Of a DNA stretch of 64,000 nucleotides, positions 33,779 through 47,334 are shown piece after piece (position 1 is the first letter of the stretch; the number at the start of each line of letters is the position of its first letter). The notes below the pieces were generated by a model, which ran no database searches, was not told the origin of the DNA, and worked only from the letters and a program-made list of their open reading frames with translations. The position numbers and the translations under genes are program-made. Origin of the DNA: a virus; the IMG/VR virus record IMGVR_UViG_3300031972_002446, positions 32,001 to 96,000 of that record; one strand, written 5' to 3'.

Positions 33779-33850
33779 AACTAATTAGAATCTATTATTA
33801 TTTTACTATACACAATAAAATTGTCGTATTTTGCGCGGCCGGGTTTTGAC

Positions 33851-33878
33851 AAAAAAGAGCCGACCCGATTTCTCAGGC
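33851..33878 (-). terminator. Rho-independent terminator after DUF932 gene
   Basis: GAGTCGGCCTG-agaaat-CGGGTCGGCTC-TTTTTT. Confidence 0.85.
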
Positions 33879-33914
33879 CGACTCTTTTCGACACGCACCA
33901 CGAAAGGAGAGCGA

Positions 33915-34862
33915 TTATAGAGCGTTGGCATACTCGGTTGCGAGATTCAACGCCCTGATATTATCAGAGCCGTTTTGACCGAACCACAGACTTTCCATGC
34001 GGTTGTTGGTATTACGACCCTTTGTGTAATTAAGATACTCATTGAAGCCGTTATAGGCAGCCCACCAAGTACCAGATACTCCCGGCATTGATTGTTTCGG
34101 GCCTTCGATGGTAGCAAGAATGTCGTCCATAATATTTTTGGTACGAGTCTTGATATCCTCTTCAGCCTTTTTATCAATATTCAGCAGAACCTTCACATAC
34201 TTACGAACATCAGCCTGATTGAAATTACGACTAGCAAGAAATCGGAACTGTTCAGCACTAGCCTCAAATTGTCCGTTGATATTGTCCATGATATCTCGGA
34301 CGTTATCTAGGTTTGCTGCTGCACTTTTTGTATGTCTGATACGCAGTAGTTTGCTTACGCCACTTTGGTGAGCAAATGCCAAGGTATTCACACAAACAAC
34401 ACGAATAGGAGTGTATCCTACGCGAATAGCAGTTGTACCATCGTGACTGTTGGATAGAAGGATAAACTTCTGAACCTCATCACCCTTAACAATTTCGCTA
34501 GGATCACGATTGAGTTGAGCCAAAGCCCATACTTTTTGCCCGTCACTTAGACTTCCTCCAGTATGCAGGCTACATTCACCAGCGTCGATGAATGGCTGAA
34601 ACCAGTTGAAGGCATCACGATTCTGGAGCGGTACGTATCTTGGGCCTACCACACCTAGAATACTATTATCGCTTTTACGATAAGTTGCTCTAGCAGGTAC
34701 ATCATAACCATCTTTGGTTACAAGATCTTTTGTACCCACTTCCCAATCAAGACCACTAGCCTCGATTGCTTCTGAGATTGTTGGAGCATCTTCCAACTTT
34801 TCACCAAGGCCATGCCAAGGTTCTGCTCCGGTGTAAAACATAGATTCAACATTAGCAGGCAT
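33915..34862 (-). CDS. DUF932 / TIGR03299 phage-plasmid protein
   Basis: PWHGLG, GLDW.V, Y.PLQN.DAF, NSHDG, TPIRVVC.NT, RHT and GTWWAAYN motifs. Confidence 0.92.
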   Translation of the reverse strand: MPANVESMFYTGAEPWHGLGEKLEDAPTISEAIEASGLDWEVGTKDLVTKDGYDVPARATYRKSDNSILGVVGPRYVPLQNRDAFNWFQPFIDAGECSLHTGGSLSDGQKVWALAQLNRDPSEIVKGDEVQKFILLSNSHDGTTAIRVGYTPIRVVCVNTLAFAHQSGVSKLLRIRHTKSAAANLDNVRDIMDNINGQFEASAEQFRFLASRNFNQADVRKYVKVLLNIDKKAEEDIKTRTKNIMDDILATIEGPKQSMPGVSGTWWAAYNGFNEYLNYTKGRNTNNRMESLWFGQNGSDNIRALNLATEYANAL

Positions 34863-34901
34863 TTTAGTTCCTTTCGTAAGAGTAATGTCCTGTATGCTCT
34901 A

Positions 34902-34943
34902 AGTATATCATATATATCGTCACTGTCAACAGTTAATCTTTAG
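34902..34943 (-). promoter_or_regulatory. Early sigma70-type promoter
   Basis: CTAAAG..TTGACAgtgaCGATAtatatgaTATACT. Confidence 0.8.
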
Positions 34944-34988
34944 CATAATTGAGAAAAAAATAACATAATCAGCCCGGCCTGATTTTAT

Positions 34989-35468
34989 TTAAATATAAGG
35001 AATGCCTAAATCTTTTTCACATAATTCAGGCATTTTCCTATAAGCACATTGATCTTTCATATAAGAGTACACGCCAATACATTTAGAGATTGGAGTTTCA
35101 TTCTTAATACTTCGAATGATATGTTTAACAGTATCCCCAGAGCATATTAAATCATCAATAATAATATATCGTTTACTACTTGGGCCTTCTACTATAAAGT
35201 CACTATATCCATCTTTTTTCTTACGAATAACAATTATATTTTTTTTGAGCAATTCAGCAATCTGTGGCACAACCATTAAACCACTCGTACCACAACATGC
35301 TATAGCATCGTATCCAATATTTAATTTATTCAAATAAGAATAGGTAGTCATAATTATTTTATTACGATATTTATGATTTAAGATACGGCTAGTATGAGAT
35401 GCTCCTTGTATAATACTGCCATCATCATTACGTCTGAACTCGTCAAGTTCTTGCATTAAAATATTCAT
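34989..35468 (-). CDS. Type I phosphoribosyltransferase-like protein
   Basis: PRPP-binding loop YIIIDDLICSGDT; G.SG; VIRK. Confidence 0.85.
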   Translation of the reverse strand: MNILMQELDEFRRNDDGSIIQGASHTSRILNHKYRNKIIMTTYSYLNKLNIGYDAIACCGTSGLMVVPQIAELLKKNIIVIRKKKDGYSDFIVEGPSSKRYIIIDDLICSGDTVKHIIRSIKNETPISKCIGVYSYMKDQCAYRKMPELCEKDLGIPYI

Positions 35469-35478
35469 AATTAAAAAA

Positions 35479-35552
35479 GACTAATGGCCTGATTCGAACA
35501 GACTAAATTGATAACTAGATTTATATGTGTGTCCCACCACACCGCATTAGTC
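35479..35552 (-). ncRNA. tRNA-like element with non-canonical anticodon arm
   Basis: 8-bp GACTAATG/CATTAGTC stem, D-like GTGTG/CACAC arm, T-arm GTCTG-TTCGAAT-CAGGC, then T6; AT-rich middle arm with no 7-nt loop. Confidence 0.6.
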
Positions 35553-35567
35553 GAAAGGAGATCAATA

Positions 35568-35795
35568 CTATATCTCATCAATAAGTTCAATAGGTTCTTG
35601 GTAGAGGTAGTTGCACGTTACATCTGTTTCAGCATTTTCATATTCATCATCTAAGTATGTTCCTTCTGTCATGAATTCACTATAATCAACGCTATTATCA
35701 GTAAGATCATCAATATATTCCCATTTATGATTATCCATATATAATTCTCCTATCGTGAAACATTTAGTAATAGCATATTTTAACATATGCCACAT
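35568..35795 (-). CDS. Very acidic small protein
   Basis: Likely start MDNH after GGAG; D/E/Y-rich. Confidence 0.5.
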   Translation of the reverse strand: MWHMLKYAITKCFTIGELYMDNHKWEYIDDLTDNSVDYSEFMTEGTYLDDEYENAETDVTCNYLYQEPIELIDEI

Positions 35796-35806
35796 CGCTT
35801 GTCAAG

Positions 35807-35879
35807 TACCCCCAGTAGGACTCGAACCTACAACATACGGTTTAAAAGACCGCTACTCTACCGATTGAGTTATAGGGGC
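35807..35879 (-). tRNA. tRNA-Lys (UUU)
   Basis: Cloverleaf; anticodon arm GCGGT-CTTTTAA-ACCGT; T-loop TTCGAGT; no encoded CCA. Confidence 0.95.
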
Positions 35880-35883
35880 TGAG

Positions 35884-45323: not shown

Positions 45324-45425
45324 TTTCTTTTCTTTCTAATCTGTTACTTGTTATATCCTAAGTATATATACTATATCGGAATTTGTCAAGCATTAATTTA
45401 GAAATATTTTTATTATTTTTCTGTG

Positions 45426-45472
45426 TGCAAATATCATGCCAAAAATTTTTTTTGTTTGGCACATCGTTTGCT
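45426..45472. promoter_or_regulatory. Back-to-back consensus sigma54 boxes
   Basis: Minus strand TGGCAT-GATAT-TTGCA (45426-45441) and plus strand TGGCAC-ATCGT-TTGCT (45457-45472). Confidence 0.75.
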
Positions 45473-46000
45473 GTAAGTTTTTTATCGTAACGCGGCCCGG
45501 CTCGTTACGTGATTTTAATAAGCCTCTTCGGGTGTCCAATATATTTCTTCAAACAAGTCCACACCAGTTACGTCACACCAATCAAGAGGGTGTGAGTTGT
45601 TCTCGTCACAAGGCTCAACACAACCTTCCGATTCCAGGGCAGCAATTAAAAGTTGCATATCGATGTTAAACATATCAGTTCTCCGTGGTAAGTGTTATAT
45701 GTCAAGTATATACATACTATATTTATTGTCAAGTACAATCTTTATTTTTTTTCGTAGATTGTATCAAGATAAATTTCATCAGCAGTCATAACATATCCGT
45801 ACTCACAATTAGGGGTATACACCCCAAAATATACCTTACCATTATCATACCCTTCGAACCCTACCATGATTCCAAATATAGTGTAGATTGTCAACATTGT
45901 TTTTCTCCGTGGGTTATTCTTTCCTATACTTTATATATCGACAACATACAGTAGAAACTTAACAGAAATTTTATTTATTTATTTATTATTTTTTTAACCA

Positions 46001-46024
46001 AACCCGGCGGCACTCTTTGTGCCA
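46001..46024 (-). promoter_or_regulatory. Sigma54-like box plus GC-box
   Basis: Minus strand TGGCAC-AAAGA-GTGC-CGCCGGGTT. Confidence 0.6.
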
Positions 46025-46046
46025 AAAATCTAATAATCTACCATAT

Positions 46047-46370
46047 TTATTCTTCTATAAAGGGTGATTCCTCACGATCCTGTAAAAATTCATACTGACT
46101 CTTTAATGCCTCGACACGTTCAGCACTTCCCGGTTTACCTATAGGTTTAGACATATGATCCACACCACCAACTACGCGAGGGTTTGCCTTTGTATGTCGT
46201 TTTCTGAAATGTTTACGACTAAACTTGACTACCTTTTCACCATCAATAGTACCTCCATCAGCAGCAGACTTCTGACAAGGGATAGCAATTCCCTGCCAAA
46301 TATTTTCACATTCGTCCCAAGCGTCTGATAAGATTTGATACTTTTTCATTAATTTTTCTGTACTACTCAT
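46047..46370 (-). CDS. Hypothetical protein
   Basis: 107 aa; PGS.ERVE.L..QY motif. Confidence 0.65.
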   Translation of the reverse strand: MSSTEKLMKKYQILSDAWDECENIWQGIAIPCQKSAADGGTIDGEKVVKFSRKHFRKRHTKANPRVVGGVDHMSKPIGKPGSAERVEALKSQYEFLQDREESPFIEE

Positions 46371-46599
46371 TATAAAAATTCCTACAGTAAAGTATATTCT
46401 GTGCTACTCTAATTCCCTCGTAATCTTCTGGTCGACATTCTTGACAAGCCACCAAATAGCATTGTAATTTAGGCGTGTCAAATTTGTCAAGTACTTTGTA
46501 AAGGTACTCATATAAAGATGTTGATTTGTATTCATTCATTTTTTGCATCATCCTCAAATATAGGGTCGCCGTATTCATCGACTGGTATTCCGTCTTCAT
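46363..46599 (-). CDS. Hypothetical protein
   Basis: 78-aa ORF overlapping the next gene. Confidence 0.5.
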   Translation of the reverse strand: MKTEYQSMNTATLYLRMMQKMNEYKSTSLYEYLYKVLDKFDTPKLQCYLVACQECRPEDYEGIRVAQNILYCRNFYNE

Positions 46600-46726
46600 T
46601 CATAAATATATCACCATTTCGCAGACCGTCAATAGTGATTTCTAATTTTTCTTGCTCACTAAACATATAGCACCTTTTAATATTTTTTCAAAGTGTACCA
46701 AAATTTTTCCGTCTATGCAATCCGCT

Positions 46727-46914
46727 TTATGCGGCCCCGTAAAAATCGAGACCAGCCTGAAAGTGTACCGCTTCAGAATCATCATAATCGATTCTATCTT
46801 CGATAACTTCGCAATGCTCAAGGCACGTTGGGCAAAGATCGGCATCGGAGTGAACCGAAGCACCACAGCAATCAGAGGAGTAAACTATTTCGAAATTTTT
46901 TGAAGTGTTTAACA
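46727..46914 (-). CDS. Small Zn-finger protein (start MLNTS within the 46727-47032 ORF; start coordinate approximate)
   Basis: SDCCG...CPTCLEHC; AAGGA RBS. Confidence 0.65.
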
Positions 46915-47020
46915 TTTTTTTTATCCTTTGTTTAATGTTCTTTTTAGTATATCGGAATTTTAACATACTAAACTTTAATTTGCAAGAAGAATTTTTTTCC
47001 TCTTTATAGTTTATATATAG

Positions 47021-47036
47021 TGCAAGTATCATGCCA
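47021..47036 (-). promoter_or_regulatory. Consensus sigma54 box
   Basis: TGGCAT-GATAC-TTGCA. Confidence 0.7.
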
Positions 47037-47229
47037 TTCGGATAAAATTTTTTTGCCTATACTTGTATACTTTTTAGATTGTCATTATGGCATAATTCAC
47101 ATTCTTGTAACATGATTTGTCATGTTATTGTGAATAGTACGTAAAACCCGTTAAATACGTGTCACATTATTGTGAACATGATTCATACGTACGTTACAGT
47201 CAGCATGGGGGGTTTTTTTGTTTTGTTAT

Positions 47230-47248
47230 GATAATGAGAATCAGTATC
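47230..47248. promoter_or_regulatory. Fur-box-like site
   Basis: GATAATGAGAATCAGTATC; 17/19 match to GATAATGATAATCATTATC. Confidence 0.65.
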
Positions 47249-47334
47249 AATAAGCCGGGGGTCATCCAAACATAATAAGGGCTATAAAATATAAAATGTA
47301 ATAGCTAAACCTTTCGCTTAGACCCTAAGTCCCT

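Follow-up and report, generated by a model that had tools for sequence, protein, structure and literature searches.

G/C-only boxes between early-gene cassettes of an uncultured phage and the junction modules that contain them in its relatives

What are the short G/C-rich boxes that punctuate the AT-rich spacers in the early region of an uncultured phage, and what, if anything, has been conserved in them? The phage is represented by a single contig of 165,940 bp with 33% G+C (IMG/VR record IMGVR_UViG_3300031972_002446), and the window analysed here is the stretch of 64,000 nucleotides comprising its bases 32,001–96,000; all coordinates below are window coordinates, except where genome positions are indicated. 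An earlier note, made by a model from the letters of the window, had reported twelve of these boxes between positions 33833 and 47261 and had taken them for an array of protein-binding sites. All twelve positions indeed hold a G/C-rich core within an AT-rich spacer, and we number them here as boxes 1 to 12. As shown below, the boxes cluster in a block of early genes, and in related phages their G/C-only composition, but not their sequence, is conserved within a module of fixed geometry.

Clustering of the boxes in the early block

The boxes lie in a block (33.8–47.3 kb) of small minus-strand genes, which are mostly ORFans and most of which have no family match. The block differs from its surroundings in base composition, with 38–40% G+C (33800–47300) versus ~30% on either side. 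The same applies to its DNA outside open reading frames (ORFs) of at least 80 aa, hereafter non-ORF DNA, with 37.7% G+C versus 29.6% elsewhere, and the coding strand of the block is G-rich. It also carries many near-consensus minus-strand promoters of the form TTGACA-N16/17-TATACT, as well as three tRNA genes, which were the only matches in an Rfam search.

The whole genome contains 25 G/C-only runs of at least 8 nt, 12 of them at window 33.8–47.3 kb. When only non-ORF DNA is considered, all ten runs fall in the block, which has 28.5% of this DNA (P ~3.5e-6), two of the ten belonging to a tRNA or to a structured stretch that has no ORF and resembles a non-coding RNA. The statement that the box is absent from spacers elsewhere thus holds for the entire genome. 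Two complete relative genomes, added for this comparison, behave likewise, because 18 out of 20 and 12 out of 15 of their non-ORF G/C-only runs are in the homologous block; the genome-wide density check that had been proposed therefore returns clustering, and not an even spread, in the three genomes. In one relative, G002 (loci L083-L084), a glycine-rich gene with GGC repeats at genome positions 114.5–116.0 kb accounts for a second cluster of G/C runs.

The boxes resemble each other only loosely. The shared motif, similar to a 12-mer, that had been described is supported by five matches with up to two mismatches, versus 0.19 expected, but its consensus is loose and the pure G/C core is just 6 nt long in four copies. 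Surviving cores in the window span 6–11 nt, and in seven boxes they are still pure G/C runs of 8–11 nt within spacers of ~75% AT. Two private flavours can be distinguished, and their copies bear out that the boxes occur in both orientations. Flavour AATCAGCCCGGCC has three exact copies in both orientations (boxes 2, 3 and 7), and flavour CAGSCCGCAC-N6-TGCC has four copies, one of them inverted, and reads TGGCAY-N5-GTGC on the opposite strand; beyond these two, the box copies are divergent. The share of G in the boxes is 0.54, with no marked strand bias. Box 12 (47254–47261) has to be removed from the family, because it belongs to another element, located in the upstream control region, whose sequence relatives have conserved. 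The heptamer CGGGCTG has ten copies in the genome, eight of them within the block; the copy at 37543 can pair with CAGCCTG just ahead of a T-run, and is part of an RNA stem and not of a box. The distances between successive boxes within 33833–45492 include four that agree to within 13 bp (1137, 1128, 1128 and 1124 bp), and a regular lattice of boxes every 1.1 kb was considered; it is unsupported in relatives, neither L017 nor the complete relative G004 showing such regularity.

Nine of the twelve boxes (boxes 2 to 10) have a consensus-like promoter, TTGAC-N16-18-TAnnnT, 21–112 nt downstream. The boxes had been described as lying just upstream of a -35, and this is right as regards the presence of a promoter but not its proximity, since neither the distance nor the helical phase is fixed. 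A box is found upstream of ~9 of the 16 strongest minus-strand promoters, so that nearly one box per boundary between transcription units, as had been claimed, is an overstatement. The DNA between the box and the -35 has an AT content of 73–79% at the six junctions for which it was computed (boxes 2–7).

A module with a variable G/C core in related phages

A nucleotide search with the block in a phage collection gave no match, and no close relative is present there. Using two block proteins, we retrieved 75 loci from ~70 viral contigs of up to ~240 kb. In these relatives the G/C-only boxes are always within a larger module that contains, in this order, a palindrome, a short spacer, the G/C-only run, another short spacer, a second palindrome, an AT-rich stretch and a TTGACA promoter. 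Modules of one subclade (type A) have a 25-bp palindrome with arms TAAGTCCTT and AAGGACTTA, of which the right arm is conserved and the left one degenerate, and those of another subclade (type B) have a palindrome of 13–15 bp, TGCCA-AAA-TGGCA. In a complete type-B genome, the 27 palindromes are all in the early block and 24 of them adjoin a G/C run. Of 156 distinct type-A modules, 147 have their two palindromes 28 bp apart, and all 68 type-B modules have them 16 bp apart, whereas the G/C run inside this fixed spacer can be as short as 6 nt or as long as 21 nt. In type A, 20, 30–31 or 41–42 bp lie between the end of the second palindrome and the -35, and in type B ~14–15 or 24–25 bp; these distances are in helical register, which argues for a role at the DNA level. 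Judging by its layout, the double-palindrome module looks like a protein-docking site.

We also evaluated pairing at the RNA level. The type-A palindrome was rejected as a conserved RNA hairpin, because the left arm is degenerate, compensatory changes are few and the closing pair alone covaries. Likewise, base pairing of the spacer arms across the box is apparent at the consensus level only, with covariation not above that of shuffles. In type-A relatives (loci L021-L073, around position 9800–9860), the first palindrome often begins with the TAA stop codon of the gene upstream.

The junction upstream of the promoter of a DUF932-family gene (PHROG 1221) allows the comparison of orthologous boxes, because a box is present there in most of ~55 distinct relatives. 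The sequence and the length of this box differ in nearly every relative but the run stays G/C-only, and the flanking palindrome swaps between type A and type B. In flank-anchored orthologous pairs, exchanges between G and C make up 22 of the 48 differences in boxes versus 27 of 251 in the flanks (odds ratio 7, P 8e-8). Related loci contain zero to three copies of CGGGCTG each, versus eight in the block, and even close relatives show no array. The expectation that the boxes would be conserved in relatives despite gene turnover is therefore borne out for the presence of a G/C-only box, which is kept, but not for the box sequence, which has turned over. Because the sequence at the orthologous junction differs completely in nearly every relative, the box is not sequence-specific. 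Taken together, the fixed spacing, the sequence turnover, the absence of folding (see below) and the excess of exchanges between G and C point to selection, as far as sequence comparison can tell, on the composition and length of the DNA duplex, and neither on its sequence nor on RNA structure.

The modules also mark places where genes have been exchanged. The order of the small gene modules at 42–47 kb is rearranged with respect to close relatives. As swap junctions we took module pairs with one flank homologous and the other not, classifying the alignments by hand; of the 16 module-related swap junctions, about eight are in or at the box, and the first and the second palindrome account for six and two, respectively. 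Counts of homology ends around the boxes of the window were uninformative, since spacers diverge fast anyway. Box flanks in the window are mosaic, with one left half, AATCAGCCCGGCC, joined to three different right halves, and boxes 6 and 9 are inverted to each other before near-identical promoter modules. These patterns fit recombination between modules, although the counts are small. Profile searches of the phage found no T7-like RNA polymerase, C5-methylase, Y1 transposase, or tyrosine or serine recombinase, and families PF00589, PF00239 and PF01797 gave zero matches in the genome, so that the dedicated enzyme expected of site-specific recombination sites (att, attC or lox-like) is lacking.

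In the window phage, the palindromes are gone at most junctions and two or three type-A copies are left, whereas L001, L009 and L019, among other close relatives, still have them. For instance, at the junction before the DUF932-family gene the second palindrome is retained in L009, L017 and L019, and the window shows a deletion of about that length. Boxes outlast palindromes at several junctions.

Possible nature of the boxes

Our interpretation, which we hold to be probable by a narrow measure, is that the boxes are the G/C-only cores of junction modules that part independently promoted early-gene cassettes, and that they work at the level of the duplex as a 'GC clamp'. The box would be a stiff, hard-to-melt double-stranded spacer holding two docking palindromes at a fixed distance, would insulate the AT-rich DNA upstream of the promoter from a terminator or hairpin that belongs to the previous unit, and would be a preferred joint where recombination links cassettes; its core sequence would be free to change, with the G/C make-up and the spacer length retained. 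The window phage would have dropped most palindromes and kept the boxes in two private flavours, some of them fused to TGGCAY-N5-KTGC. In this phage, the boxes may still separate, as a clamp, a terminator from the AT-rich DNA ahead of the promoter, or else be recent relics. A broader proposal is conceivable, although we are inclined to doubt it: that a DNA part coded by composition, a sequence-free G/C core in a fixed spacer between palindromes and phased with the promoter, would serve uncultured aquatic phages of a large clade as a novel enhancer or insulator of early promoters and as crossover core of cassettes. A phage or host protein would read this part through DNA mechanics or the minor groove and not through the bases.

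Several observations weigh against interpreting the boxes as duplex clamps. In the window, little is left of the palindromes, of the fixed geometry and of the helical register, and its boxes could be decaying relics. Swap junctions are few and were classified by hand, and the box is moreover the part of the module that changes fastest. The substitution test (22 of 48 versus 27 of 251) is biased, since the boxes were chosen for being pure in one genome. Finally, we know of no mechanism that demands a sequence-free G/C-only spacer.

Other explanations have to be weighed against these results. We consider it unlikely that the boxes are just relics without present function, persisting after the loss of the palindromes, and perhaps also of their binder, and homogenised by gene conversion. 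The deletion of palindromes at most junctions here, and their retention in L001, L009 and L019, would agree with it, as would the cores of 6 nt in four copies, the lack of helical register to the promoter in the window and the mosaic flanks, which suggest exchange among copies; yet seven pure G/C cores of 8–11 nt persist in spacers of ~75% AT, boxes outlive palindromes at several junctions, and exact multi-copy flavours suggest recent spread and not decay. Distinctly unlikely, in our opinion, is the original proposal of sequence-specific sites for a host or phage protein, either an enhancer-binding protein or a CCGG/GGCC-specific restriction or methylation enzyme, that would titrate it or organise the DNA. 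The box sequence is unconserved at the orthologous junction, and a box that is not sequence-specific argues against its recognition by any of these proteins, even if AATCAGCCCGGCC and CAGSCCGCAC-N6-TGCC are shared within the genome (three and four copies, zero expected), if the boxes are rich in GGCC, GCCG and CCGG words and if box likeness, judged by eye, is greater within the genome than across genomes. Besides, none of the related loci contains an eight-copy CGGGCTG cluster, the boxes appear in both orientations and at variable distances from promoters, and scanning the private 14-mer in other viral contigs yielded single chance matches only. Nothing supports a cluster or decoy of restriction or methylation sites, since GGCC and CCGG are not avoided elsewhere in the genome (observed/expected of 0.83 and 1.16), no word is kept across orthologous boxes and the phage has no C5-methylase. 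We did not find a phage enhancer-binding protein either, the sole match to PF00158 being weak and in a 301-aa frame at genome positions 17758–18663. What remains of the binding-site array is its non-random distribution, its confinement to the early block and the docking-like palindromes of relatives, but not the box itself as the specific target; a role of the boxes in DNA entry is without support here.

The association with sigma54-like motifs deserves separate consideration. The motif TGGCAY-N5-KTGC appears seven times in the window versus 0.13 expected, with an exact GG-N10-GC spacing and always within 39.5–47.0 kb (39526–47036). Four of these matches abut a box and the copy at 44368, without the T, counts as the fifth, in agreement with the five fusions that had been reported; all five fused copies have GTGC, with G/C-only DNA after it. 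The box might then be the downstream part of a sigma54-type promoter, in which a G/C-only segment from -11 to -1 would hold the closed complex, as a roadblock or sink, or enforce activator dependence. In line with this, five boxes directly follow a -12 element, the same fusion exists in close relative L001 and the canonical TGGCAY-N5-TTGC is frequent in relatives. We nevertheless regard it as very unlikely, because just five of the twelve boxes are fused and three of these five face against the genes, relatives of type A and type B show no fixed relation between box and motif, and the phage encodes no enhancer-binding protein; additionally, the fused copies, with their GTGC, often form a GGCAC/GTGCC dyad and may be a third kind of palindrome. 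The sigma54-like fusions are a lineage-specific extra. Unfused copies with the canonical TTGC are found at 45427 (minus strand), 45457 (plus) and 47022 (minus), and the phage encodes one late-type sigma factor. We find it hardly credible, in turn, that the boxes are stems of intrinsic terminators, or of other RNA structures, at the 3' ends of upstream transcripts. In favour of it, the G/C run at the DUF932 junction forms the 3' arm of a canonical terminator in relative L015, pairing is possible between box 1 and a motif upstream of the neighbouring terminator, and certain phage stem-loops described below often bear polyG/polyC tracts (PMC2839356). Nevertheless, RNA folds around ten of the twelve boxes are no better than those of shuffles, and the two stable local folds owe their stability chiefly to a separate hairpin, although box 1 contributes an outer stem. 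A terminator scan flagged a single weak mini-hairpin beside a box, and none of the twelve boxes forms a G/C-rich hairpin directly followed by a T-run. Boxes 1, 3 and 7 sit 7–11 nt beyond the T-run of a complete, separate terminator and, therefore, in largely untranscribed DNA, and the helical register in relatives indicates DNA and not RNA. An explanation purely by terminator stems, which the earlier note had raised, is rejected; where terminators are present, they are separate from the boxes. The box as a palindrome or hairpin in its own right was discarded too, its palindromicity and folding being no better than those of shuffles, with no end-to-end complementarity.

The closest described system is the cassette with promoter-early stem-loops (PeSLs) of T4-type phages, in which a stem-loop, often with polyG/polyC, adjoins a strong early promoter that has an AT-rich stretch upstream (PMC2839356; PMC4122927). 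PeSL cassettes flank ORFans and mediate modular shuffling (PMC2839356; PMC4122927). Both systems consist of repeated intergenic cassettes in a fast-changing early region, with a strong sigma70-type promoter, an AT-rich upstream stretch and an adjacent G/C-rich element, and both flank small ORFans and mark places of gene swaps between relatives. They differ in that the G/C tracts of PeSLs form a transcription-terminating stem-loop, whereas the box is not self-complementary and, in relatives, is flanked by two palindromes of constant separation, in helical register with the promoter; moreover, the window phage is not T4-like, and its genome contains a 4,205-aa open frame. The element is thus PeSL-like in its placement and its link to shuffling, fails to show the terminating stem-loop, and adds a rigid double-palindrome geometry.

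Other systems are looser analogues. Cluster O mycobacteriophages contain dozens of copies of a 17-bp dyad repeat, mostly intergenic and denser in one arm, for which binding of a dimeric protein is predicted and whose function is unknown (PMC4351075). They share with the present modules the many short, mostly intergenic and arm-biased palindromes that are predicted to be protein-bound, but are sequence-invariant, single, mostly away from promoters, rarely at rearrangement points and devoid of a G/C-only spacer. The stoperators of Cluster A mycobacteriophages are many repressor-bound sites in short intergenic spaces that act on transcription arm-wide (PMC6550527; PMC4351075). Stoperators, from temperate phages, are asymmetric, oriented with transcription and repressor-specific, unlike the boxes described here, which are orientation-free and not sequence-specific. 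Among bacterial elements, the boxes are reminiscent of REP/BIME (repetitive extragenic palindromes and bacterial interspersed mosaic elements) in being G/C-rich, extragenic and located between transcription units. In enterobacteria, these are paired G/C-rich palindromes for which functions in termination, mRNA stability, gyrase binding and recombination have been proposed. REPs are palindromes themselves and are mobilised by the RAYT transposase, whereas the box is not a palindrome and no Y1 transposase was found in the phage.

If the boxes are indeed duplex clamps at cassette junctions, they would illustrate concretely how selection can act on nothing but the composition and length of the DNA of a regulatory element, and would hint at a new early-gene regulator in widespread uncultured large phages. 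Portable promoter and boundary cassettes driving gene shuffling would then extend from T4-like phages to an unrelated lineage. Boxes and palindromes can be used as annotation markers for the boundaries of transcription units and cassettes in these genomes.

Individual boxes and other features of the block

Box 1 (33833–33843) is an 11-nt G/C-only core situated 7 nt past the T-run of the intrinsic terminator of the DUF932-family gene (33851–33888, minus strand; hairpin plus T6, fold z -4.9), which is separate from the box. The spacer downstream of it (33676–33777, minus) keeps two surviving type-A palindromes, at 33753–33777 and 33676–33700. Box 2 (34967–34979, plus), of flavour AATCAGCCCGGCC, comes right after the stop codon of a phosphoribosyltransferase-like gene, with the -35 42 nt on. 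Box 3 (37449–37463, minus), of the same flavour, is preceded 11 nt before by the T-run of a terminator-like hairpin with T7 (37470–37496, minus) that ends an ORF-less structured stretch, and its -35 is 79 nt on.

Boxes 4 (39527–39546), 5 (40655–40674) and 6 (41600–41619), all on the minus strand, belong to flavour CAGSCCGCAC-N6-TGCC, which in box 4 reads TGGCAC-N5-GTGC on the plus strand; boxes 5 and 6 are identical, and the -35 is 45, 45 and 36 nt on, respectively. Upstream of box 5, a palindrome hairpin resembling type A survives (40690–40745, minus; z -5.1), and its outer stem is G/C-rich. Box 7 (42693–42708, plus), again of flavour AATCAGCCCGGCC, has a T-run 8 nt before and the -35 21 nt on, and an intrinsic terminator with a 9-bp stem and T6 is found upstream (42717–42770, minus). 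Box 8 (43824–43833) has a 10-nt core and the -35 112 nt on. Box 9 (44368–44387, plus) is inverted with respect to boxes 4–6, of whose flavour it is, and precedes the same promoter module as box 6. Box 10 (45491–45501) has a core of 11 nt, flanked by inverted repeats of 6 bp (CGTAAC and GTTACG), with the -35 101 nt on, and box 11 (46003–46024, minus) is fused to TGGCAC-N5-GTGCC. The consensus sigma70-type early promoters that follow boxes 2–10 span 34902–45389 on the minus strand, and their first hexamers are at 34929, 37369, 39493, 40621, 41575, 42676, 43711, 44346 and 45389.

The block contains other recurrent or structured sequences. The sequence CTCYTTYCGTGGTG is located directly 3' of stop codons at 33896–33909 and 40753–40766 on the minus strand (two matches versus 0.04 expected), and is also 3' of stop codons in relatives L001, L015 and L017. 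An ORF-less structured stretch of ~315 nt at 39130–39460 (minus) is driven by a promoter, matches no Rfam family and is kept in relatives L001, L002 and L006; another ORF-less stretch, of ~270 nt, occupies 37500–37766 (minus) and is ended by the terminator at 37470–37496. The control region upstream of the block (47033–47334) contains two exact copies of TTCACAATAAYRTGACA, C-runs and a short palindrome.

Apart from the DUF932-family gene, the phage genes recognised in the window include a large terminase, an HNH endonuclease, tRNAs and a transfer-messenger RNA (tmRNA). This phage-borne tmRNA gene is at 6534–6873 on the minus strand, and its tag peptide is ADTSVLALAA.

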